NCBI GenBank assembly: GCA_020352535.1
Contig: CP070679.1
Location: 1,301,016-1,350,744 of the forward strand
DNA: 49,729 nucleotides
Direction: 5' to 3'
Source: Candidatus Bathyarchaeota archaeon
Lineage (GTDB): Archaea > Thermoproteota > Bathyarchaeia > Bathyarchaeales > Bathyarchaeaceae
Within the stretch, counting starts at the first letter, position 1. Each line of letters starts with the position of its first letter. A model generated the notes under the pieces. The model saw only the letters and a program-made list of their open reading frames with translations, searched no databases and was not told the origin of the DNA. A program made the position numbers and the translations under genes. Of the stretch, positions 29,138 to 49,560 are shown piece by piece.

Positions 29138-30376
29138 TTATGGACTAGAGATGGTTGTCTCCGTCAGCTGCTGCATATTCTTCTTGAACACCGTAGCGAG
29201 CCTTTGGATTCCTACGTCAATCTGTCGTTCGGATGCATACGAGAAATTCACCCTCATGGTATTCTGTCCTTCCCCGTTGCAGTGAAAAGCTGAGCCAATG
29301 ACATAAGCGACTTTGTTTTGAATGGCTATAGGGAACAAAGTATTGGCGCTCATATTCTTCGGCAATTCAACCCACAGGAATAGCCCTCCCTTCGGCTTGG
29401 ACCATTTTACACCCTTAGGCATATATCTGTCTAAGGCCTTCAACATAACATCTAGTTTCCTTCCGTATAACTTTCGGATTTTCTCGATTTGCCTAGGCAA
29501 CAAGCCCCGTCTCAAGTATTCGGCAACCAAGAGCTGCGTAAAGGAAGGAGAACAGAGATCCATACCTTGCTTGGCTACGACCATTCGATCCATCCATTCA
29601 GCGGGAGCCATTATCCAAGCTATCCTCAACCCGGGGCATAGCAGCTTGGAGAAAGTCCCAAGTACTATAACTTGGTCTTGATTGTCCAAGCTGTAAATGG
29701 CGGGAACACTCTTCCCCGCATATCGCAGGTCTCTATAAGGGCTGTCTTCAAGAACTGGAACTTCATATTGATACGCTAGTTCCAGAAGCTTCTTCCGTCT
29801 TTGCAGTGACATTGTGACTCCAGAGGGATTCTGGAAGTCAGGTACGACATAGATGAACTTCAGCTTTCTGCCTTCGCTAACTGAATTGGCTAGTGCCTTC
29901 TCCAGCAGATCTACTTTCATTCCTGCATCATCCTGAGGAACCCCAATCATTCTGGCTCTATAGGCGTTGAAGGCCTGCAAGCCACCAACGTAGGTGGGCA
30001 ATCCTACTATGATAGAGTCCCCTGGGTCCAGGAACACCTTGGATACAATGTCAAGACCCTGCTGCGACCCAACTGTGATTAGGATGTTCTCAGGCTTGAT
30101 AGCAGCTTTCTCCCGGCTCATCCACTTGGCTATCTCCGCTCGTAATGGGGTTTCACCTTCTGTAGGTCCGTACTGTAAGGAGGTGGCACCTTTTTCTTGC
30201 AGAAGGTGGCACGCGATGTCCTCCAATTCATTTACAGGAAATGTCTGAGGATCGGGAAGTCCACCCGCAAAAGAAATAATGCCTGGTCGCCTAGCCAGCT
30301 TGAGGAGCTCTCTGATTTCAGAACGTTTCATGTTAAGGGCAGCTTTAGAGTAGAACGCTGTTAAATCCTCAATCAA
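29138..30376 (-). CDS. PLP-dependent aminotransferase, class I/II (2-aminoadipate/aromatic aminotransferase-like)
   Basis: 412 aa. 'ISFAGGLPDP..FP', 'LQYGPTEG...LR..IA', 'IYVVPDFQNPSG' and the PLP-lysine region 'LGTFSKLLCPGLRIAW'. Its stop abuts the stop of the convergent gene. Confidence 0.85.
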   Translation of the reverse strand: MIEDLTAFYSKAALNMKRSEIRELLKLARRPGIISFAGGLPDPQTFPVNELEDIACHLLQEKGATSLQYGPTEGETPLRAEIAKWMSREKAAIKPENILITVGSQQGLDIVSKVFLDPGDSIIVGLPTYVGGLQAFNAYRARMIGVPQDDAGMKVDLLEKALANSVSEGRKLKFIYVVPDFQNPSGVTMSLQRRKKLLELAYQYEVPVLEDSPYRDLRYAGKSVPAIYSLDNQDQVIVLGTFSKLLCPGLRIAWIMAPAEWMDRMVVAKQGMDLCSPSFTQLLVAEYLRRGLLPRQIEKIRKLYGRKLDVMLKALDRYMPKGVKWSKPKGGLFLWVELPKNMSANTLFPIAIQNKVAYVIGSAFHCNGEGQNTMRVNFSYASERQIDVGIQRLATVFKKNMQQLTETTISSP

Positions 30377-35788: not shown

Positions 35789-37744
35789 TTGACATCTGAC
35801 AAGAAGGTGAAAGAATTGGGTAGCATTTGGTATCCTCCAGAGAAGCTTATTGAGACAAGTAACGTGAAGGCATTCATGAACAAACATGGCATAGAGAAAT
35901 ATCAAGACTTGATCAGACGATCCACAGAAGATATCGAGTGGTTTTGGAAAACAGCTGTCAAGGAGTTGAAGGTAGAATGGTTTAGCAGTTACGAGACTGT
36001 TCTAGACGCAGCTGAAATACAGTGGGCTAAATGGTTTATTGGAGGCAAACTGAACATCGCACACAATTGCATTGACAAACATGTAAAATCCTGGAGAAAG
36101 AATAAGATAGCTTTCATATGGGCAGGCGAGAATGGCGAAGAGAGGAGATACTCCTATTGGGACCTATACTTCGAGGTGAACAGATTCGCCAATGCCTTAA
36201 GAAGCTTGGGTGTCAAGAAGGGAGACACAGTAGCTCTTTGTATCCCTATGCTGCCAGAAACAGTCGTGGCACTCTTTGGTATACTGAGAATTGGCGCAGT
36301 AGTAGTTCCGATTTTCTCTGGATACAGCCCAGCAGCTGTGTCTACACGATTGAGAGACGCAGGGTCAAAGGTTCTCATAACAGCAGATGGCTACTACCGC
36401 AGAGGCAGACCTGTTAAGCTGAAAGAAAAGGTTGATGAAGCAGTCAAAGCTGCCCAGAAAGTGAAAACGGTAGTAATCTGTAAGAGGATGGATATTGACA
36501 TTCCATTGACGAAGGGAAGGGATCTATGGTGGCATGAGCTTCTAGCTGATCAGCTGGCAGAATGTGAAAGTGAGAAGATGGACTCACAAGCTCCCGCGCT
36601 GCTACTATACACTTCAGGCACAACTGCTAAGCCCAAAGGAACAGTAATTTCCCAGGTTGGTACCCTCCTCCAGAGCTCTAAGGAAATCTATTTCAACCTT
36701 GACCTAAAAGATGAGGATGTCTTCTTCTGGATTACAGATATCGGATGGATGATGGGTCCTTGGCAGCTTGTAGGTGTCCAGCATCTAGGCGGAACCCACG
36801 TAATTTTTGAGGGGGCACCTGACTACCCTAAGCCTGACAGACTATGGAGGATGATAGCCAAGCTCAGCGTCACAGCCCTTGGAGGCTCTGCTACTGTCTT
36901 CAGAATGCTAAAGAAATATGGAAATGAGTATGTTGAAGCTCATGACCTGCGCAGCCTTCGCATCTTCGGGAACACAGGAGAAGCTATAGACCCTGATACG
37001 TGGCTTTGGCTTCACAAGACGGTTGGACAAGAGAGATGCCCGATAATAAATCTCTCGGGAGGAACAGAGATATTTGGTTGCTTCCTATTACCACTACCGA
37101 TTATGCCCTTAAAGCCTTCAACGCTAGGAGGGCCAGGGCTAGGAATGGATATCGATGTCTTTGATGATAAGGGGAAGCCAGTCAGAGGTAAGGTCGGATA
37201 CCTGGTCTGTAAGAAACCTGCGCCATCCATGACTAGAGGCTTCTGGAGGGATCCTAAGAGGTATATCGAGACCTATTGGTCCAAATGGCCCAACATCTGG
37301 TATCATGGAGACTGGGCTTCAATCGACGAGGATAACTTCTGGTTCCTCCATGGGCGAGCTGACGATGTAATCAAAGTGGCTGGGAAAAGAATTGGACCTG
37401 CTGAGATAGAGTCAATCCTTAACCAACACTCAGCTGTCTATGAGTCCGCTTGTATAGGCGTACCTCACGAAGTTAAAGGTGAAGAAGTGCTGTGCCTTGT
37501 TGTTCCTAAGCCAGGCTATGATACCAACCAGGAATTAAGGGATGAGCTCGTAGGAGAGGTTGTTAGGCTTATGGGCAAGCCATTTCGGCCTCGAGATATC
37601 AGCTTCGTCGGTGACCTACCTAGAACAAGGTCTGGGAAGATTATGCGTAGACTGATGAGAGCTGTTCTACTTGGCAAAGAACTAGGTGACACCTCAGCTC
37701 TAGAGAACCCAAAAGCCCTAGAAGAGATAGCGAGAGTGGCGTAG
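35789..37744 (+). CDS. Acetyl-CoA synthetase-family AMP-forming acyl-CoA synthetase
   Basis: 'KWFIGGKLNIAHNCIDKH', AMP-binding motif 'LLLYTSGTTAKPKGTV', 'TDIGWMMGPW', 'FEGAPDYP', 'GNTGEAIDPDTWLW' and C-terminal 'LPRTRSGKIMRR'. The TTG start is uncertain; GTG at 35807 is possible. Confidence 0.85.
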   Translation: MTSDKKVKELGSIWYPPEKLIETSNVKAFMNKHGIEKYQDLIRRSTEDIEWFWKTAVKELKVEWFSSYETVLDAAEIQWAKWFIGGKLNIAHNCIDKHVKSWRKNKIAFIWAGENGEERRYSYWDLYFEVNRFANALRSLGVKKGDTVALCIPMLPETVVALFGILRIGAVVVPIFSGYSPAAVSTRLRDAGSKVLITADGYYRRGRPVKLKEKVDEAVKAAQKVKTVVICKRMDIDIPLTKGRDLWWHELLADQLAECESEKMDSQAPALLLYTSGTTAKPKGTVISQVGTLLQSSKEIYFNLDLKDEDVFFWITDIGWMMGPWQLVGVQHLGGTHVIFEGAPDYPKPDRLWRMIAKLSVTALGGSATVFRMLKKYGNEYVEAHDLRSLRIFGNTGEAIDPDTWLWLHKTVGQERCPIINLSGGTEIFGCFLLPLPIMPLKPSTLGGPGLGMDIDVFDDKGKPVRGKVGYLVCKKPAPSMTRGFWRDPKRYIETYWSKWPNIWYHGDWASIDEDNFWFLHGRADDVIKVAGKRIGPAEIESILNQHSAVYESACIGVPHEVKGEEVLCLVVPKPGYDTNQELRDELVGEVVRLMGKPFRPRDISFVGDLPRTRSGKIMRRLMRAVLLGKELGDTSALENPKALEEIARVA

Positions 37745-37796
37745 CACTAGGACGCACTAACATGTACTCTAGGGTCACAAGGCAGATAGGGCTGAT

Positions 37797-38792
37797 TTGG
37801 GGAGTGAACCATTGAAAAGCCTCACAGTCGGAATCATCGGATTAGGACCAGTAGGGTCCATTTTAGCCTCGCATCTAGCTGATTATGGAGTGGATGTAAT
37901 TGTCGAAGATATCGCTGAAGAACTTCTAGCTCAAATCAGGAAGAATGGTCTAAAAGTTTCAGGAATCCATGAATTAACTGCTGACATTGATAGGATTACG
38001 GGTTCATTAGATGAGTTGGCTGAGTCAGAGCCTGATATTATCTTCATTGCGACAAAAGCCTGTTTCTTGAGGACAGTGTTGTCTAACTTAAAATCAGTAT
38101 ACAAAGTGAAAATGAAGGTAGTTAGCTTCCAGAATGGATTGGGCAATGAGCAAGTTATTACTCAAGTTCTAGGTGTTGACACAGCATATCGTGTAGTGAT
38201 TAACTATGCAGGAGAACTGGTAAGCCCAGGTAGTGCGAAGATGAATTGGTTTCAACCGCCTAACTACGTTGGGGCTCTCAGAGATGGACAGTACACAACA
38301 GATGATACGACAGAGTACATCGCGGAAATCATGACCGCTTCAGGATTGGAGACCGAGGAATCCCAAGATATCAAGCGACACGTGTGGAAGAAGACGATTC
38401 TGAACGCTGCCCTATGTTCTGTCTGTGCCTTAACCGGTCAGACTATGAAGGAAGCCATGGAACTCAAATCCAGTCGCAATGTTGCCATAAGGATTCTTGA
38501 GGAGGGATTGCGGGTAGCTGAAGCTGATGGGTATGCTTACGGAGAGGACGCACTCGAAAAATTCGCCAGCTACCTGATGAAGGGTGGCGCTCACAAGCCT
38601 TCCATGTTAGTGGACATAGAGAATAGGCGGAAGACCGAAGTTGATTTCTTGAGCGGAGCCATCGTAAACCAAGGAAAGAAACTTGGAACTGACGCACCTA
38701 CAAATTGGGCTGTGACTCAGTTGTTGAAGACCTTAGAGGAGATGCGTCTAGAGAGGAAGCACCGGCGCCCACACGTCAAGAGTCTAATTTAG
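37797..38792 (+). CDS. Ketopantoate reductase (ApbA/PanE) family NAD(P)H-dependent 2-oxoacid reductase
   Basis: Rossmann 'VGIIGLGPVGSILASHL', 'IFIATKA', 'FQNGLGNE' and C-terminal 'KPSMLVDIENRRKTEVDFLSGAIVNQGKKLG'. TTG start. Confidence 0.75.
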   Translation: MGSEPLKSLTVGIIGLGPVGSILASHLADYGVDVIVEDIAEELLAQIRKNGLKVSGIHELTADIDRITGSLDELAESEPDIIFIATKACFLRTVLSNLKSVYKVKMKVVSFQNGLGNEQVITQVLGVDTAYRVVINYAGELVSPGSAKMNWFQPPNYVGALRDGQYTTDDTTEYIAEIMTASGLETEESQDIKRHVWKKTILNAALCSVCALTGQTMKEAMELKSSRNVAIRILEEGLRVAEADGYAYGEDALEKFASYLMKGGAHKPSMLVDIENRRKTEVDFLSGAIVNQGKKLGTDAPTNWAVTQLLKTLEEMRLERKHRRPHVKSLI

Positions 38793-38848
38793 ACTCGTAG
38801 CGACTCTTAAAAGATACTAATAGCCGAGTAAATCATATTCGTGCGACA

Positions 38849-39343
38849 TCACAGAGTCTCGAATAGCTTTGCGATGCCTTCGAAGGAGAAAGGCTTTGGA
38901 ATGAAATCATTCAGGCTAATGAGATATGTTTCATTCTCCTCAATGTCATCCCCACCTTCAGCAATTATGCTTGAGATAAACCTAGAATAGTCTGTGTAGT
39001 TTTTATGCAGTGATATGATCAGCCCATTCTTTCCTCCACCTTGACATCTAGCGGAGAAAAGTATGTTTGGGCTGTTCATAGTAACTTCTTCAGCCTTATC
39101 TGCTAGCTCTTTTCTCACCCGCGATCTGAAGCAATTGATTGCCATAATCTCAAATCCCATTTCTGAAAGATTCGGGATTACTGTGAATTCCTTTATCATA
39201 CCTTCCTTGACAAGCTTGCTTCTTGTCCTAGTAACAGTCGGCTGTGACACTCCTACAAGCTTTGCAATCTCTCGGTCGCTTCTCTTGGAATCCCTCAACA
39301 TCTCTACAAGGATTTTCCTCATCGTCCTTTTCATCTGCATCAC
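38849..39343 (-). CDS. Lrp/AsnC-family transcriptional regulator
   Basis: HTH 'ILVEMLRDSKRSDREIAKLVGVSQPTVTRTRSKLVKEGMIKEF' followed by a RAM-like domain. GAGGTG lies before the ATG. Confidence 0.8.
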   Translation of the reverse strand: MMQMKRTMRKILVEMLRDSKRSDREIAKLVGVSQPTVTRTRSKLVKEGMIKEFTVIPNLSEMGFEIMAINCFRSRVRKELADKAEEVTMNSPNILFSARCQGGGKNGLIISLHKNYTDYSRFISSIIAEGGDDIEENETYLISLNDFIPKPFSFEGIAKLFETL

Positions 39344-39488
39344 CTCTTCTGAGGTGTATCACATGCAAATAAACCTTTGTGTATTCATGACTCACGATGC
39401 ATCAGGAAAGAGTCGAGCCCAACATGCACGGACAATGCGCACACGATTGCATTCATGATACGAAAGCGCTAGCTACACCGGTGCTACG

Positions 39489-39797
39489 TTATACATATCC
39501 ATCTTTTTTCGTGCACCGTGTCAACTTTTCGCATGTCAGGCACTCGTCTGGGAACTCCGTTCGGTTAGAGAATAACTTCAGATATCCGAAGTAGTGAGGG
39601 CAGCCTGGTTGAGTCTCTTGCGCAACATCTTTAGAGCGTCTTGGAAACTTCAAGTCTCGCTCTACTAAATCAGATAATTCAATACGGTTCCTGCAGTGAG
39701 GGCAAGCATAACATGTTTCCCTAATAACCCCTGAAAGGTCAACCCTAGTGACTAGCTGATCGAACTTCTTTCCACAGTCTGGATGAGGACACCTCAA
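39489..39797 (-). CDS. Cysteine-rich zinc-ribbon protein (102 aa), unknown function
   Basis: N-terminal CxxxxC...CxxC ribbon ('CPHPDCGKKF...CYACPHCRN') and C-terminal 'GCPHYFGYL....EFPDECLTCEKLTRC' Cys cluster. TTG start. Divergent from the dehydratase genes. Confidence 0.55.
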   Translation of the reverse strand: MRCPHPDCGKKFDQLVTRVDLSGVIRETCYACPHCRNRIELSDLVERDLKFPRRSKDVAQETQPGCPHYFGYLKLFSNRTEFPDECLTCEKLTRCTKKDGYV

Positions 39798-39996
39798 TGA
39801 GGTTCAACCTAACTTGTTCTATATCAACTAGGAACTAACTCAAGCACCTGCAAATTCGTCCAGACAAAATTAAACATTTATGAATAGACAATCAGTATTC
39901 CAGACTCCCCGTAGCAGAGCCCTTTCAGCTGAGTATATACATATTCTTTAAGAGCCAAGCCTACTTAGAAGCCAATTCAAGCTTGAGTGTCCCAAC

Positions 39997-41118
39997 ATGA
40001 AGATTCTGGAGTCCTTTGGAAGAATATTATATGAAAGACACGTGATCGCAGAGAAATGGAAGGCTCAACATAGACCAGTGATAGGCTGGAATAGCACTTA
40101 TACACCGGAAGAAATCATCCTTGCCGCTGATGCGCTACCGATTAGGATTTTAGGAAGCCTTAGACCTACAACCCTAGCAGACGCATGTCTCCCTCGTAAT
40201 GCATGCTCGTTCGTCAGAAGCACCCTTGATATGGCATTAAGAGGTGACTACGCCTACTTAGATGGACTTGTAACTTCTAACTCTTGCGACAACTTCAACA
40301 AGACATACGACCTCTGGAAGTCCTACGCGAAGATTCCTTACTTCCACTTCATCAATACCCCCCACACGAATACTTCTGTGGCTCACAGCTTCTTCTGCAG
40401 GGAGATTAGAAGGCTTAAAGAATCTCTGGAAGACGCCTTCAGAACCACCATACCCAGCAAGGCAATCAATAGAGCTATTCAGCGCTGTAATGAAAATAGA
40501 GTTCTCCTCAAGAAGGTTTATGATCTGAGGAGAAAGAGCACGCCTGCTATCAATGGTGTTGAAGCACTTGAAATTGTACTATCCAGTATGCTAACCTCGA
40601 AGGAGCAACATAGTACTCTCTTAAGACAACTCCTGAAGGAGATTGAGAACCGACCCAACCCGCCTAAACCAGGTATAAGGCTCTTAATCACAGGAAGTGT
40701 AATGGACGCAACAGACCTGATAAGCATTACCGAGGCTGTTGGCGGAATTGTAGTAGCAGATGACCTATGCACGGGAACAAGATACTTTTGGAACCTTGTC
40801 AGCGCAAGCAAAGACCCCATAGATGCAATATCGAAAAGATACCTGGACAAGATACCCTCACCATCCAGATATCATCACCGAAATGGACGATTCGCCCACA
40901 TAGAAAACATGATCAGACGGTACGATGTTGAAGCTGTCATCAACTTTCTTCTGAAATTCTGCGACACCCATATGTTCGATGCCCCGCTCTTGACAGAAGA
41001 ACTGAGAAGCCAAGGAATACCTGTCTTGAACCTTGAATGGGAGCACACCAGAAGCGGGATTGCACCTTTGAAAACAAGAATTGAAGCTTTCATAGAGACT
41101 ATCAAAGGAGTGCCATGA
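39997..41118 (+). CDS. 2-hydroxyacyl-CoA dehydratase / benzoyl-CoA reductase BcrC/BadD/HgdB-family subunit
   Basis: 373 aa. 'PVIGWNSTYTPEEIILAADALPIRILG' with conserved Cys contexts (CSFVRS, NSCDNF, DLCTGTRY, KFCDTH) is typical of the HGD-D family. Confidence 0.8.
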   Translation: MKILESFGRILYERHVIAEKWKAQHRPVIGWNSTYTPEEIILAADALPIRILGSLRPTTLADACLPRNACSFVRSTLDMALRGDYAYLDGLVTSNSCDNFNKTYDLWKSYAKIPYFHFINTPHTNTSVAHSFFCREIRRLKESLEDAFRTTIPSKAINRAIQRCNENRVLLKKVYDLRRKSTPAINGVEALEIVLSSMLTSKEQHSTLLRQLLKEIENRPNPPKPGIRLLITGSVMDATDLISITEAVGGIVVADDLCTGTRYFWNLVSASKDPIDAISKRYLDKIPSPSRYHHRNGRFAHIENMIRRYDVEAVINFLLKFCDTHMFDAPLLTEELRSQGIPVLNLEWEHTRSGIAPLKTRIEAFIETIKGVP

Positions 41119-42332
41119 CGATGACAAGATTGCAGACCCTCCAAGATTTCTATCAGAAGCATGTTCAACCGTACTATCGAGATGCCCATAAAAGCCAGGA
41201 AGAGCACAAGCCTATTGCTTGGGTAGCATCTACCTTCCCTATCGAAATACTTCAAGCCATGGACATAACGCCGATATGGCCTGAAAACTATGCTTCAATT
41301 TGCGCAGCGAGACAGATTTCTGTGCAGCTCGCGGAAATCGCCGAGAATCAAGGTTACTCTAGGGATTTGTGCTCCTATGCCAGAACTGTAATCGGCGCTA
41401 TCCTAAAAGAGGATACTCAGCATCTGCCTGAAGGGGGATTACCAAAGCCTGACTTCCTTGTAGCGTCAACCGCAGCATGTGATACACATCTTAAATGGTT
41501 CCAGATCCTCAGTCACCATCTGAAGCGACCCTTGTTTCTCCTAGATTCACCCTACAACACAATGGGTGCAGACGCTGATCATCTTGAAGCTGGCTTAATA
41601 GAACAATACGTACTTCAGCTACTGGGATTAATCAAATTTCTAGAAGAACAGACAGAAACAACGCTAGATCGATCCAAGCTGCGCGAGAGTTTAGCTCTTT
41701 CAGACAATACGAGTAATCTATGGCTGGAAATTCAAGGTTACAGGAAAAACTCTCCGTCGCCGATGGGAGCCAGAGATGCTTTCTCAGCCATCTTCTTCAT
41801 GCTTAGCATCCCAGCTACAAAAGTGGCTGTGAATTTCTACCAAGCTCTACGAGACGAGGTTAGAAACTTAGTAGGAAAAGGCCTTGGAAAAATCGAAAAC
41901 GAACGGTATAGGTTGATCTGGGACAACTTGCCTATGTGGTTCAATCTGAGATTCTTTAACTATCTAAACAGCTTGGGCGCTGTCACCGTGGCTGAAACAT
42001 TCTCTCATGTCTGGACAGGAAGTTTAGACCCTTCAGAACCTCTGGAAAGCCTAGCCAAGAAATACCTTCCAAACTTCGCCAACTGCAGCCTTGACCGAAG
42101 AGTCAACCTCATTCTCCAACTAGCAGAGGATTATCAAGCCAACGCAATAATCCTCCCTACAAATTGGGGATGCAGAATGATGTCAATAGGAGAGACAGTC
42201 GTGAAAGAAGCTATATTCAAGAAGCTTGGGATTCCTAGCCTCATACTCGACGTAGATTCATCGGATTGGAGAAACTATGATGAATACCAAGTCAAAACCA
42301 AGCTTGAAACCTACCTCAAAACATTGAAATAA
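41115..42332 (+). CDS. 2-hydroxyacyl-CoA dehydratase-family subunit (partner of 39997-41118)
   Basis: 405 aa. 'KPIAWVASTFPIEILQAMDITPIWPENYASICAARQ', 'DLCSYART', 'AACDTHLKW', 'NWGCRMM'. ATGA overlap with the upstream subunit indicates translational coupling. Confidence 0.8.
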   Translation: MTMTRLQTLQDFYQKHVQPYYRDAHKSQEEHKPIAWVASTFPIEILQAMDITPIWPENYASICAARQISVQLAEIAENQGYSRDLCSYARTVIGAILKEDTQHLPEGGLPKPDFLVASTAACDTHLKWFQILSHHLKRPLFLLDSPYNTMGADADHLEAGLIEQYVLQLLGLIKFLEEQTETTLDRSKLRESLALSDNTSNLWLEIQGYRKNSPSPMGARDAFSAIFFMLSIPATKVAVNFYQALRDEVRNLVGKGLGKIENERYRLIWDNLPMWFNLRFFNYLNSLGAVTVAETFSHVWTGSLDPSEPLESLAKKYLPNFANCSLDRRVNLILQLAEDYQANAIILPTNWGCRMMSIGETVVKEAIFKKLGIPSLILDVDSSDWRNYDEYQVKTKLETYLKTLK

Positions 42333-42340
42333 CAGGAGAG

Positions 42341-43912
42341 TCAGAGAAGGTCAGAGTAGTGTTCTTTAAGCTTTCTATGTAAAATCTTTCCCGTTGCTGC
42401 TCGAGGCATTTCCGCATAGTCGATGAAAATCACTCTCTTCGGCTTCTTGTATCCAGCCATCTTTCCCCTACACCATTCAATGATGTCATTGCTGGTTGCG
42501 GTTTCACCATCTCGTAATACAACAACAGCGGTTACAGCCTCACCCCACCTATCATCCGGAAGGCCTATCACTGCGACGTCGCGGACTTTCGGGTTTGAGG
42601 AGATTATCGCCCCAACCTCTGATGGGTAGACATGCTCTCCTCCAGTGATAATCATATTGTCTTTCCGGTCGACAATGTAGTAGTAGCCTTCTGCATCACG
42701 CTTCACTAGATCTCCTGCACTGAAGAAGCCATCTATAAAAGCAGCCTCCGTCTTCTCAGGCATCTTGTAATACTCATCAAACATCATTGGACCTCTAGAA
42801 TATAGTTCGCCAACTTCATCAATAGCGACTTCATACCTGCCTTTCCCTAGAAGCCGAATCGCATCGATACCCAAGCATTCCCTCCCGATTGAACCAATCT
42901 TTCTCAATTGGTCTTCTGGCTTGAGTATTGTAACGAGACCAGCTTCCGTAGAGCCATATGCCTCATAAAGCTCAACCCCTGGAAAGCATGCCATGATCTC
43001 ACGCTTTATCTTACCTCTAGCTGGAGCAGATGAGCACAACAGCTTAGATAATGATCCTGTATCGAATTGCCGGCGCTCCTCATCAGGAATACTTAGAATC
43101 AGGCTGTAATGTGTTGGAATTAATGAGGTGAATGTTATCTTCTCCCTATGGACAGACTTCAACAGCTCAACTGGATTGAACCCTTTGTCGCGACCAATGA
43201 ACAGAGATCCACCAACGTAAAGGAAGAGGAGTCCATAAAAGGTGGAGTTCACGTGGAAGAGAGGCATGATAATCATTCCATAATCCTTCTCTGAGAGGCC
43301 AAATTCCACAGTGTTAACTAGGAAAAATGCAACATATGATTCGTGGGACCTGACAACACCCTTGGGAAAACCTGTTGTCCCTGAAGTGTAAATTTGAGCC
43401 CACGTGTCTTTGCCCGTTACTTCCACATTGGGCTTATGACTCGGGGAATCCGCAATCAAGTCCTCAAGATTCATATAGCCGCTAGGCTTGGTCTTGCCTA
43501 CAACTATGTAGTTGCTTCGTCCCACCTTTCTGAACGTCGACCGAAGCGCATCAATCTGATTCGTAAACTCTTCGAAAACTATGATCGCTTTGGCATCAGA
43601 GTTGGCAACAACGTACTGGATTTCCTTCCCAACATAGCGCCAGCTGACTGGAGCAATCACCAATCCAGCTTTAGCAGTTGCACAATATATCTCGACAAAT
43701 TCGACACAGTTGTACAGCAAGACCGCAACACGATCACCTTTACATAAGCCTAAACCAAGCAAGCCATTAGCCAGCTTATTTACCCTGTTATTCAGCTCCG
43801 AATATGTCCTAGTAGTTTCGCACCAATCCTTGACAGCTAATTTCTCAGGATACTTCTTGGCGTGAACGCTTAAAATCTCCCCTAGGTTTAACCAAGCCAT
43901 AATCGACTTCAC
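42341..43912 (-). CDS. AMP-dependent acyl-CoA synthetase/ligase (FadD-like, medium/long-chain or aryl)
   Basis: 'WAQIYTSGTTGFPKGVVRSH', 'YGSTEAG', 'GDLVKRDAEGYYYIVDRKDNMIITGGEHVYPSEV' and 'PRAATGKILHRKL'. Confidence 0.85.
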   Translation of the reverse strand: MKSIMAWLNLGEILSVHAKKYPEKLAVKDWCETTRTYSELNNRVNKLANGLLGLGLCKGDRVAVLLYNCVEFVEIYCATAKAGLVIAPVSWRYVGKEIQYVVANSDAKAIIVFEEFTNQIDALRSTFRKVGRSNYIVVGKTKPSGYMNLEDLIADSPSHKPNVEVTGKDTWAQIYTSGTTGFPKGVVRSHESYVAFFLVNTVEFGLSEKDYGMIIMPLFHVNSTFYGLLFLYVGGSLFIGRDKGFNPVELLKSVHREKITFTSLIPTHYSLILSIPDEERRQFDTGSLSKLLCSSAPARGKIKREIMACFPGVELYEAYGSTEAGLVTILKPEDQLRKIGSIGRECLGIDAIRLLGKGRYEVAIDEVGELYSRGPMMFDEYYKMPEKTEAAFIDGFFSAGDLVKRDAEGYYYIVDRKDNMIITGGEHVYPSEVGAIISSNPKVRDVAVIGLPDDRWGEAVTAVVVLRDGETATSNDIIEWCRGKMAGYKKPKRVIFIDYAEMPRAATGKILHRKLKEHYSDLL

Positions 43913-47325: not shown

Positions 47326-49560
47326 TTGGAAACGTGTGCTCTAGAACGTGGGGATGAAGTGGTTCTCAATCTCAAGGAGAGAGAAGAGGTTACAGTTTTG
47401 CATATCGACGATGAGCGTGAGTTCTTGCAGACTGCAAAACGATGCCTAGAACTAGAAGAGGGCTTCTCTGTGTATTCCGCATCATCAGTAGAGGAGGCTC
47501 TTGAGAGAATGAAAGAGCAAGATTTCGATGTGATAGTCTCAGATTATATGATGCCAAGTAAAAACGGGCTGGAATTCTTGCGGGAGCTAAGAGAAAATGG
47601 GAATGAAACACCTTTTATTGTCCTCACAGGCAAAGGCAGGGAGGAAGTAGCAATCAAGGCTCTGAATCTTGGAGCCGACCAGTATCTGAGTAAGTCAGGC
47701 AGCCCCAAAGCAGTCTATGGCGAGTTAGTACATAGTATACGACAAGCCGTGAAAAGAAGAAGGGCTGAGGAAAAGGTCATTCGTTCAGAGGAGCTGATGA
47801 GGTCACTGTTCAATGCAGCTGTCGATGGCATAGCCTATGTTGACCCGTCTGGGAAAATCCTTGCCGCAAATAAAAGGCTGGTGGAGGAGATGCTAGGGTA
47901 TGAGATCGAAGACACAATTGGTCGGGACTTCACCAAACTTGGGAGAATCGAATCCAGTGATCGCCCACATGTTCTTAATGCAATGAGGGAGGTTATCACC
48001 TCTGGGCAACCAATAGAGCACTTCGAAGTAACATTAATAGGGCAAGATGGTTCGCGAATCCCCACGGAAATCAGCACTGGAGTTTCGAGGGAGAACGGCG
48101 TAGTTACAGGTATAACAGCTGTGGTCAGAGATATTTCAGAACGGAAGAAAACCGAAAAGGCAGTTCGCGAAAACCAAGAGAAATTCCAGAAGCTGTTTGT
48201 ACATAGCCCTGAAGCGGCAGTTTATGTAGATTCGAACTATAAAATCACAGACATCAACCCACGCTTCTCAGACCTTTTCGGATACTCCTTGAATGAGATC
48301 AGAGGAAAAGAAATCGACGATGTTGTAGTTCCTGAGGGCAAGGAAGAAGAAGGAAAGATGCTAGGGCGTCGAGCCAGCGAAGGATACGTGTACTTCGATA
48401 CTGTCAGGAGGAGAAAGGATGGAACTCTTGTCCATGTTTCGATATCAGCTGCTCCAATTACAATTGGAGGGCAGCTCGTGGGTCATGTAGGATTATACAA
48501 AGACATTACAGCTCAGAAGAAGGCTGAAAGAGAACTGGAAGAAGCCAGAACTCATTTCCAGACTCTTTTCAATCTCATGGTCGATCCAGTAGCCATCGTA
48601 GACAAGAAAGGAAGAATCCTTGACATTACAAAGAGTGCCGTGGAGGCAACCGGGTTCAAGAAAGAAGAACTCATTGGGAAGAACTTTCTGAGGACAAGGA
48701 TAGCGACTACGAAGAGCAAAGCCCTCCTGGTAAAGAATTTGGCAAAACGAATGATGGGGATGCATATGGCCCCCTACGAAGTGGAGATGCTGACAAAGGA
48801 TGGAAGAAAATTGCCTTATGAAGTGAACGCACTAAAGATAGAGTACAAAGGCAAACCAGCAGACCTAGTTGTGTTCCGAGATGTTTCGGAGAGAAAGAAG
48901 ATGGAGGAGAAGCTGCGTGTCGTTGGAAAATTGACTAGGCATGATGTCCGAAACAAGCTATCAGTGATTACTGGGAATGCGTTCTTAGCTAGGAATAAGG
49001 TAGATAACCCTGAGACCTTGGGATACCTAGAGGATATTGAATTCGCTTGTCAGCAAATCGAAGGAATCTTTGATTTTGCTAGGGCGTATGAAAGGCTGGG
49101 CGTTGAAAAATCATCGTACATGAACGTTGAGAGAACATTCAGTGAAGCTGCAGCGTTATTCCCGAATCTGAGTGGCATCGAGGTTATCAGGAATTGCCCT
49201 CAATTAACAGTTCTCGCAGATTCATTGCTTCGCCAGGTTTTCTATAACCTGATAGACAATTCAATAAGGTATGGAGAAAGGGTTAGTCAAATACAGATGT
49301 ATTGTGCGGAGAGAGCAGATGAGATAGAATTGATATACGAAGATAATGGTATCGGCGTGGCCGACACCGAGAAGGAGAAAATCTTCGCTGAAGGCTACGG
49401 AAAGGGGACAGGTTACGGATTGTATTTGATAAAGAAGGTATGCGGAGTATATGGCTGGACTATCGAAGAAACGGGCGAAGAGGGCAAAGGAGCTCAATTC
49501 ACCATGACTATTCCTAAAAACAGCGAGAAAGGAGCAGAAGGGTACCGTCTGCGCTCCTAA
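47326..49560 (+). CDS. Hybrid signal-transduction protein: receiver (REC) + 3 PAS domains + histidine kinase
   Basis: REC 'VLHIDDE...DVIVSDYMMPSKNGLEFL...PFIVLTGKG....ALNLGADQYLSK'. Three PAS blocks each end in '..RDISERKK', 'KDITAQKKAE' or 'RDVSERKKME'. H-box 'LTRHDVRNKL', N-box 'NLIDNSIRYG', G-boxes 'DNGIGV' and 'GTGYGL'. The TTG start is uncertain. Confidence 0.85.
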   Translation: METCALERGDEVVLNLKEREEVTVLHIDDEREFLQTAKRCLELEEGFSVYSASSVEEALERMKEQDFDVIVSDYMMPSKNGLEFLRELRENGNETPFIVLTGKGREEVAIKALNLGADQYLSKSGSPKAVYGELVHSIRQAVKRRRAEEKVIRSEELMRSLFNAAVDGIAYVDPSGKILAANKRLVEEMLGYEIEDTIGRDFTKLGRIESSDRPHVLNAMREVITSGQPIEHFEVTLIGQDGSRIPTEISTGVSRENGVVTGITAVVRDISERKKTEKAVRENQEKFQKLFVHSPEAAVYVDSNYKITDINPRFSDLFGYSLNEIRGKEIDDVVVPEGKEEEGKMLGRRASEGYVYFDTVRRRKDGTLVHVSISAAPITIGGQLVGHVGLYKDITAQKKAERELEEARTHFQTLFNLMVDPVAIVDKKGRILDITKSAVEATGFKKEELIGKNFLRTRIATTKSKALLVKNLAKRMMGMHMAPYEVEMLTKDGRKLPYEVNALKIEYKGKPADLVVFRDVSERKKMEEKLRVVGKLTRHDVRNKLSVITGNAFLARNKVDNPETLGYLEDIEFACQQIEGIFDFARAYERLGVEKSSYMNVERTFSEAAALFPNLSGIEVIRNCPQLTVLADSLLRQVFYNLIDNSIRYGERVSQIQMYCAERADEIELIYEDNGIGVADTEKEKIFAEGYGKGTGYGLYLIKKVCGVYGWTIEETGEEGKGAQFTMTIPKNSEKGAEGYRLRS

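Follow-up and report, generated by a model that had tools for sequence, protein, structure and literature searches.

In the Fld route of Clostridium sporogenes (FldABC with FldI) a 2-oxo acid is converted by way of the (R)-2-hydroxy acid and its coenzyme A (CoA) ester to cinnamoyl-CoA, and this reductive Stickland branch relies on FldA, a CoA-transferase subunit, and has an activator dedicated to it. Described here is a pair of adjacent genes for HGD-D family (PF06050) subunits from a stretch of 49,729 nucleotides of a Candidatus Bathyarchaeota archaeon (GCA_020352535.1, contig CP070679.1; G000:C1:1301016-1350744), the whole of which is called the window, and within which no activator of the BcrAD_BadFG family (PF01869) is found and no family III CoA-transferase (PF02515) either, the latter being missing also from the rest of the assembled genome. 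We lean, if cautiously, towards seeing in the pair a ligase-fed module of the 2-hydroxyacyl-CoA-dehydratase type that would be energised in trans by the BzdP- and BzdQ-like ATPases of the same genome, a reading drawn from sequence comparison.

All characterised members of this enzyme family need an ATP-dependent activator (PMC11971306, PMC7317905). In BzdNOPQ of Aromatoleum, a benzoyl-CoA reductase of class I (structure 8S02), BzdN binds an [8Fe-9S] double cubane through Cys36, Cys73, Cys100, Cys263, Cys293 and Cys327, the distal part of which is proposed to accumulate electrons, and BzdO binds a [4Fe-4S]-OH2 cluster through Cys95, Cys128 and Cys380. Glu65 and His131 are the acid/base pair of BzdO, the His being replaced in HadB, and Tyr97, Gln274, Tyr298, Trp46, Leu302 and Leu383 make its thioester and ring contacts (PMC11971306). 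The ATPase and catalytic dimers of the BZD type are predicted to associate only transiently (PMC11971306), which would permit an ATPase to be shared.

The metagenome-assembled genome (MAG), from Bathyarchaeia, is fragmented and 77 % complete; its longest contig makes up the whole window, and absences were therefore checked in relatives. Though displayed as one contig the assembly (G000) consists of 222 pieces, of median length 3.4 kb, joined by 100-N spacers, so that coordinates and distances between pieces have no positional meaning.

Comparison with described systems

39997..41118, plus strand: sub1, the beta or BzdN-like HGD-D subunit, 373 amino acids (PF06050, 300.2 bits)
41115..42332, plus strand: sub2, the alpha or substrate-binding HGD-D subunit, 405 amino acids (PF06050, 237.9 bits)

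Both adjacent genes score far above the PF06050 cutoff of 28.4 bits and they overlap by the four nucleotides ATGA at 41115-41118, preceded by AAGGAG; the public annotation starts sub2 two codons later (403 amino acids), which leaves the coupling unaffected. The preliminary description of this DNA had placed a translationally coupled HGD-D pair at 39997-42332 and had suggested iron-sulfur clusters from its Cys contexts, and on both counts, as in its open reading frame (ORF) coordinates generally, the ORF map, the domain matches and the cluster cysteines seen on alignment to solved structures agree with it.

Like the pair, HadBC of Clostridioides difficile with its activator HadI (3O3M, 4EHT) is a heterodimer of two HGD-D subunits. 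HadB is the best solved match of sub2 (3O3M_A, 159.5 bits, followed by BzdO at 121 and MbdO at 70), and the two have in common the three-Cys open-iron site, a Cys-Arg/Lys after the third ligand and a Trp at the BzdO Leu302 position. A candidate 2-oxo-acid reductase is encoded alongside, and dependence on a BcrAD_BadFG ATPase is probably a further likeness, since in the BzdQ-like ATPase of this genome both cluster-Cys motifs line up with those of HadI (structure 4EHT, 204 bits). The pair differs from HadBC in that its operon has no dedicated homodimeric activator, AMP-forming ligases stand in place of a CoA-transferase, and the reductase is of the ketopantoate-reductase (KPR) family rather than the D-2-hydroxyacid-dehydrogenase family; further, at the position of BzdO His131 sub2 carries a His and HadB does not, sub1 lies nearer to BzdN than to HadC and keeps remnants of the distal-cubane ligands, and the gene order is beta then alpha.

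With BzdNOPQ the pair shares its N-like then O-like gene order, a sub1 whose best solved match is BzdN (8S02_B, 224.8 bits, with HadC at 151.7 and DCCP at 128), a sub2 that keeps Cys95/128/380, Glu65, His131 and Tyr97, and a probable electron source, BzdPQ with ferredoxin, which lies in the same island in relatives. It differs in six replacements in the sub2 pocket, in a sub1 with four of the six [8Fe-9S] ligands, in having no P/Q genes after it, and in that a true BzdNO-like pair is separate in the same genomes. DCCP with its reductase, from Carboxydothermus hydrogenoformans (6ENO, 7YYL), is of the same fold family and is ATPase-driven, but it is a homodimer with six Cys ligands per subunit and no CoA-ester site, whereas sub1 has four of these six and a distinct alpha subunit as its partner. 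Were the substrate aromatic, FldABC/FldI would be the candidate functional analogue, a likeness that comes from general knowledge of the family, with the difference that ligases, shared BzdPQ and adjacent genes of beta-oxidation and ring reduction suggest an oxidative funnel here.

Curated models are missed on both sides. The top NCBIfam match of sub1 is the double_cubane model (234.5 bits, below its cutoff of 350), the Had models score 204.7 against 750 (HadB) and 180.3 against 700 (HadC), the Bzd equivalog models are missed widely (sub1 on BzdN 222.4 against 453.8; sub2 on BzdO 134.6 against 448.6), and no match to the Hgd, Fld or Lcd models was returned in the NCBIfam scan of the pair. What these comparisons support is a genuine iron-sulfur heterodimer of the BCR/HAD family, as far as the residues predict it.

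Trees of each subunit were made from the clade of the pair, its Bzd-like paralogues (N' and O' below) and 9-11 bacterial pairs, the alpha tree being a quick version. In both, the pair and the Bzd-like sequences are split from the bacterial clades with support of 92/93 (beta) and 89 (quick alpha tree), and the branch leading to O' is very long, at 3.3. The split together with this long branch explains why sub2 scores higher on HadB than on BzdO and yet sub1 higher on BzdN than on HadC. The placement of the pair is provisional, since the sample excluded the named HgdAB, HadBC, FldBC, LcdAB and BcrBC and is subject to thin sampling and long-branch effects.

Cluster and pocket residues

Read at BzdO positions 44, 46, 65, 95, 97, 128, 131, 274, 298, 302 and 380-383, sub2 carries the fourteen-site signature S-F-E-C-Y-C-H-L-F-W-C-R-M-M, which is invariant in 10 orthologues from several genera. 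Retained in it are the three-Cys open-iron [4Fe-4S] site, equivalent to Cys95/128/380, and the catalytic dyad, Glu57 and His125 of sub2 aligning with Glu65 and His131 of BzdO. Six pocket sites differ from BzdO, namely Gln274 to Leu, Tyr298 to Phe, Leu302 to Trp, Glu381 to Arg, Gly382 to Met and Leu383 to Met, and with them the residues of the benzoyl thioester site (Gln274, Tyr298 and the Cys380-Glu-Gly motif) are not found in sub2, where Leu, Phe and Cys-Arg-Met stand invariantly instead. The O' paralogues agree with BzdO at 13 of these positions. A library of 1.84 billion proteins supplied the 143 nearest full-length representatives, each of which scores above HadB: 135 of them have a Cys-Arg/Lys after the third ligand, most have a hydrophobic residue at position 274, and only 27 have a His131 equivalent, which places sub2 within a broad and mostly uncharacterised HAD-like alpha radiation having a minority His. 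As a marker of a reductase this His was rejected, the same 27 of 143 uncharacterised representatives carrying it.

Beta subunits of 2-hydroxyacyl-CoA dehydratases have just a three-Cys [4Fe-4S]/[4Fe-5S] site and lack a double cubane. In sub1 the proximal cubane triad, equivalent to Cys73/100/327 of BzdN, is kept in all 23 sequences compared. The distal triad is variable: C-C-S in ten, C-C-C in five, S-C-S in three (those of this genus), S-S-C in three, and C-S-G and C-S-S in one each, so 18 of the 23 are incomplete there. At the six BzdN ligand positions the sub1 of this genome reads S-C-C-C-S-C, that is four of the six [8Fe-9S] cysteines, and a canonical [8Fe-9S] cluster in it is predicted to be unlikely. 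The surroundings of the distal site (Arg53, Arg267, His330) are largely conserved, and all six N' paralogues examined retain the distal C-C-C. Ser ligation or a stepwise loss of the cluster could be what the variable ligands of sub1 reflect. The replacing residue at the distal positions is nearly always Ser.

Activator ATPases and the Bzd-type reductase cluster

The activator gene reported missing by the preliminary description is indeed missing from the window and is present in the genome. The only PF01869 match of the assembly is on a separate contig of 2,772 bp (G000:C1:237149-239920, locus L004), where a BzdQ-like ATPase of 293 amino acids can be aligned over its full length to the equivalog model for BzdQ, scoring 372.4 bits against a cutoff of 380.2. 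Upstream of it is a BzdP-like fragment cut by the contig end, 30 amino acids of which are 73 % identical to the C-terminus of P in the related genome G004, and downstream follow a 2x[4Fe-4S] ferredoxin of 94 amino acids and a GltD/NfnB-like iron-sulfur flavoprotein, a putative ferredoxin reductase. The island is broken up in this MAG: parts of it are in the window, others on the 2.8-kb ATPase piece, and thiolase and crotonase genes stand at the end of a piece of 7.4 kb; a distance from ATPase to pair within the MAG was considered and rejected as meaningless, given the N-joined pieces.

In G004, of the same genus and 99 % complete, one contig carries the genes N'-O'-P-Q-ferredoxin-GltD-like (cluster A). 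O' reaches 547.7 on the equivalog model for BzdO, whose cutoff is 448.6, and on their own models N' and Q come just short, at 441.8 (cutoff 453.8) and 376.6 (cutoff 380.2). N' holds all six double-cubane cysteines; cluster A is, going by these matches, a Bzd-type class I benzoyl-CoA reductase. N'-like matches with one in-frame TAG in a long open frame (819 and 594 amino acids) were seen at G010:C232:11279-12379 and G008:C132:539-1639, and P-like ATPase matches with one in-frame TGA at G039:C130:1654-2448 and G016:C3:21068-21835; adjacent genes read through, sequencing errors or recoding could account for these.

Synteny was surveyed over 38 named genome loci and two long metagenome contigs. 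In G004 the orthologues of the flanking ACS-family ligase, the KPR gene, sub1, sub2 and the convergent FadD-type ligase (72-84 % identity) lie about 17 kb from cluster A on the same contig, and G001 has a similar layout with pair and cluster A again on one contig (about 15-17 kb apart in these two genomes). In L019, a 666-kb metagenome contig, KPR-sub1-sub2 is convergent with GltD-ferredoxin-Q-P-O'-N' with one small gene between, and the two blocks are less than 10 kb apart in L035, L041, L043 and L046. Thus the ATPases are on the pair's contig in the seven loci G004, G001, L019, L035, L041, L043 and L046, and over the relatives the pair stands 1-17 kb from BzdNOPQ-ferredoxin-GltD, often with thiolase, crotonase and 3-hydroxyacyl-CoA dehydrogenase genes between. 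The recurring layout is [P-Q-ferredoxin-GltD] - [thiolase-crotonase-3-hydroxyacyl-CoA dehydrogenase] - [KPR-sub1-sub2] - [FadD ligase], and a second has the blocks in mirror-image order.

No activator was found beside the pair or in its immediate operon in any Bathyarchaeial locus examined. Earlier it had been proposed that an activator just outside the window in the same operon would make this an ordinary system, and the relatives come near to that, the ATPases being 1-17 kb away on the same contig. Orthologues of at least 55 % identity are confined to Bathyarchaeia-type MAGs, the next relatives (at most 34 %) being bacterial, and in 8 of 12 bacterial loci (29-34 % identity) an activator gene of their own is beside the pair. 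A 4.2-kb contig of an Anaerolineales bin (L060, CAYGAW010000015.1) has a sub2 fragment (65 %), a FadD ligase (68 %) and a 3-hydroxyacyl-CoA dehydrogenase (74 %) in the Bathyarchaeial order and is probably a mis-binned Bathyarchaeial contig.

In a survey of 41 genomes, not independent of one another because they are related, all 11 that have a sub1 orthologue also carry N' and the P/Q ATPases, several genomes have N'-P-Q without the pair, and none has the pair without P/Q. In each of five relatives of 92-99 % completeness, two PF01869 genes and no more score above cutoff, and no third, dedicated activator was found in them; four of the five have exactly four HGD-D genes, and the fifth, G018, has six matches, some of them fragments. 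This nested co-occurrence and these gene counts are the pattern predicted by a dependence of the pair on the P/Q ATPases. From them we infer that the low-potential electron most likely would come from the genome's only two BcrAD_BadFG ATPases, the BzdP/BzdQ-like heterodimer of the Bzd-type cluster.

The reductase and ligases beside the pair

35789..37744, plus strand: ACS-family AMP-forming CoA ligase, 651 amino acids (Pfam ACAS_N, AMP-binding, AMP-binding_C)
37797..38792, plus strand: KPR-family NAD(P)H oxidoreductase (ApbA and ApbA_C; TIGR00745 178.5 against a cutoff of 141.35)
38849..39343, minus strand: AsnC/Lrp-type helix-turn-helix regulator (HTH_24 and HTH_AsnC-type domains)
39489..39797, minus strand: Cys-rich, zinc-ribbon-like ORF, 102 amino acids (CxxxxC, CxxC and CxxC spacings; no Pfam or NCBIfam match)
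42341..43912, minus strand: FadD-type AMP-forming acyl-CoA synthetase, 523 amino acids, convergent to sub2 (AMP-binding, AMP-binding_C; PRK06187 433 against 476)
29138-30376: class I/II aminotransferase, with an SMC-ScpAB operon between it and the cluster
49673 onwards: start of an acyl-CoA dehydrogenase, truncated by the contig end

The AMP-forming ligases and the KPR-family gene, as named in the preliminary description, are borne out by Pfam and NCBIfam and are conserved neighbours of the pair. KPR-sub1-sub2 is a conserved core: of about 23 orthologous loci, 16 have KPR directly upstream of sub1, and every one of the 11 genomes that carry the pair has a KPR gene, compared with 8 of the 29 that lack the pair. 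That the same-genus genomes G002 (93 % complete) and G003 (98 %) have neither the pair nor KPR argues that this is not a housekeeping panE. The KPR-family enzyme is proposed to be a reductase of 2-oxo acids to (R)-2-hydroxy acids.

The ligase at 35789-37744 just passes the NF001208 'acetate--CoA ligase' model (659.8, cutoff 657) and is below cutoff on TIGR02188. In the alignment with 8RPK the ACS pocket motif 'TWWQTETG' is replaced by 'LSGGTEIF', and with it the acetate-gating Trp is gone. Loss of this Trp in ACS pocket mutants widens the acyl pocket, and the ligase is probably not an acetate-specific ACS, its pocket without the Trp predicting a substrate acid larger than acetate. Orthologues of it (74-84 %) are beside the pair in G004 and L031, and a paralogue (31-32 %) is next to KPR in L019, L020, L028, L033 and L036. 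Orthologues of the FadD-type ligase (63-77 %) are convergent to sub2 in most orthologous loci; inference of its substrate from solved ligases was tried and given up, its matches to FadD13, FadD5, feruloyl-CoA and malonyl-CoA synthetases being non-discriminating. As to CoA-transferases, of which the preliminary description had likewise seen none, neither family III (PF02515) nor family I (PF01144) was found in the five relatives that are 92-99 % complete.

A proposed route and its alternatives

With ligases and KPR conserved and no CoA-transferase, a sequence from 2-oxo acid through 2-hydroxy acid and CoA ester to enoyl-CoA is a reasonable reading, and to this extent the ligase-driven route from amino acids put forward earlier is supported. 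The KPR-family enzyme would reduce a 2-oxo acid to the (R)-2-hydroxy acid, an AMP-forming ligase would form the CoA thioester, and the pair would remove water from the 2-hydroxyacyl-CoA to give a 2-enoyl-CoA, through ketyl-radical chemistry at the open iron of the sub2 [4Fe-4S] cluster. The enoyl-CoA could then pass into the neighbouring triad of crotonase, 3-hydroxyacyl-CoA dehydrogenase and thiolase. In such an oxidative funnel the thioester would be carried forward into beta-oxidation and not recycled, and so a ligase rather than a transferase makes sense.

The substrate may be aromatic: phenylpyruvate would go to phenyllactate, phenyllactyl-CoA, cinnamoyl-CoA and then benzoyl-CoA plus acetyl-CoA, with ring reduction by cluster A to follow. 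This is one candidate scheme, unproven, which gives every gene of the island a role, and the evidence is just as compatible with branched-chain or short 2-hydroxyacyl-CoAs. A sequence of the phenyllactyl type has been hypothesised for a bacterial benzene degrader, in which the dehydratase is unassigned (PMC13416013). Doubtful, in our estimate, is the full combination, in which a dehydratase-type alpha subunit bearing the reductase Glu/His dyad, a beta subunit losing its distal half-cubane differently by lineage and a BzdPQ shared with a bona fide reductase would together make a dehydratase of the phenyllactyl-CoA type, by which an archaeon could pass from aromatic 2-oxo or 2-hydroxy acids through cinnamoyl-CoA and beta-oxidation to benzoyl-CoA.

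Several points weigh against a ligase-fed dehydratase energised by BzdPQ. The sharing of the ATPases is a reading of gene counts and proximity; the contig that bears them in this MAG is short, at 2.8 kb, and separate from the window, and N' and O' are not among the assembled pieces. Membership of the KPR family is by itself no proof of 2-hydroxy-acid formation, and scores against the Protein Data Bank (PDB) fail to separate the closest solved members of that family (83.8 against 80.7 bits). The beta-oxidation triad could serve a lower benzoyl-CoA pathway instead of the pair. Neither subunit reaches an NCBIfam equivalog cutoff, and sub1 is nearer to BzdN than to HadC, sub2 has the BCR-type His131 missing from HadB, and all six double-cubane cysteines are retained in 5 of the 23 sub1 sequences, features that fit a reductase too. 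The trees, from which the named dehydratases were left out, group the pair with the Bzd-like sequences and apart from the bacterial ones.

Alternatively the pair could be a second reductase, a paralogue of BzdNO using BzdPQ stoichiometrically on another aryl-CoA or on a conjugated enoyl-CoA, with substituted benzoyl-CoAs and cinnamoyl-type esters supplied by the flanking ligases as examples. The match to BzdN, the kept dyad, the complete ligand sets of some sub1 orthologues with the largely kept Arg53, Arg267 and His330 environment, the tree position and the sharing of an island with the reductase all favour it, and substrate-specialised class I reductases have a precedent in MbdONQP (PDB 9G87/9GAI). 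It is nevertheless unlikely: against it speak the invariant L, F, R and M of sub2 in place of Gln274, Tyr298, Glu381 and Gly382, the BzdO and BzdN model scores far under cutoff and the incomplete distal ligands of most sub1 orthologues, this genome included, and it leaves the tight coupling to a non-housekeeping KPR unexplained. A redox-neutral dehydratase would be favoured over a second two-electron reductase by this coupling to KPR and ligases, by an alpha pocket that is dehydratase-like and by the decay of the distal cubane, the electron-storing one.

The direction could also be the opposite and assimilatory. 2-Hydroxyacyl-CoA dehydratases catalyse a reversible syn-elimination of water from (R)-2-hydroxyacyl-CoAs, as is general knowledge of the family, and with an identical gene set a ligase-activated enoyl-CoA (for instance a lignin-derived one of the cinnamoyl type) might be hydrated, released and oxidised by KPR to a 2-oxo acid for amino acids. 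Bathyarchaeia have been linked to lignin-derived aromatics (PMC12694404), and the local cluster contains a regulator of the amino-acid-responsive Lrp type. But no thioesterase or CoA-transferase was identified for releasing the 2-hydroxy acid, the aminotransferase of the window is not syntenic in relatives, and the conserved beta-oxidation triad near the pair suits catabolism better, making the assimilatory direction improbable. A self-sufficient, activator-free radical enzyme of novel chemistry, as floated in the preliminary description, fits the lack of an ATPase in the window and in the immediate operons but is very hard to credit and unnecessary, with ATPases in this genome, in every sampled genome carrying the pair and 1-17 kb from it in relatives, on its contig in seven loci, no genome found with the pair and without P/Q, and an activator required by every characterised family member.

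Class I bcr genes in Bathyarchaeota MAGs have been published (PMC6472368, PMC12694404). A literature search returned no paper describing the second pair, its KPR and ligase partners, the missing ATPases or the variable cubane ligands, and none joining Bathyarchae* with '2-hydroxyacyl-CoA dehydratase'. Metagenome surveys of Bathyarchaeia commonly label any HGD-D gene 'benzoyl-CoA reductase' (JGI names; bcr counts in PMC6472368), and these genomes would hold two distinct enzymes, a true Bzd-type reductase and a dehydratase-like pair with a conserved reductase and ligases of its own, so that bcr counts can overstate ring-reducing capacity and miss a separate 2-hydroxy-acid pathway. To enzymologists the clade offers an apparent case of two catalytic modules served by a single ATPase module, a ligase-fed and transferase-free version of the 2-hydroxyacyl-CoA route, and natural ligand variants of the double cubane that are useful for the scheme of sub-cluster loss proposed for the family (PMC11971306).

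Other genes of the window and genome

Ring-opening enzymes are represented in this genome by sub-cutoff matches only (Had-like 235.9 against 338.65; Oah-like 134.3 against 464.45). The Had-like Zn-dehydrogenase and crotonase-family Oah-like ORFs concerned lie within about 8 kb on a 41.6-kb contig (G000:C1:900989-911315; L021, L023) and may be ring-opening enzymes.

The aminotransferase at 29138-30376, earlier counted into the system, was rejected as a pathway member, being beyond the SMC-ScpAB operon and absent from the syntenic region of G004. The Lrp-type regulator and the Cys-rich putative zinc protein are there as first noted but are local and not conserved parts of the island: the regulator has a single weak syntenic counterpart, in L015 (40 %), and the Cys-rich ORF has a homologue near the pair only in L038 (at about 12303; 51 %, about 1 kb downstream of the pair). 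A paralogue of the Cys-rich ORF (39 %) is found elsewhere in the MAG at about G000:C1:202005-202295. Downstream of the cluster, at 47326-49560, a hybrid sensor of 744 amino acids with a receiver, three PAS domains and HATPase_c has no syntenic counterpart in relatives.

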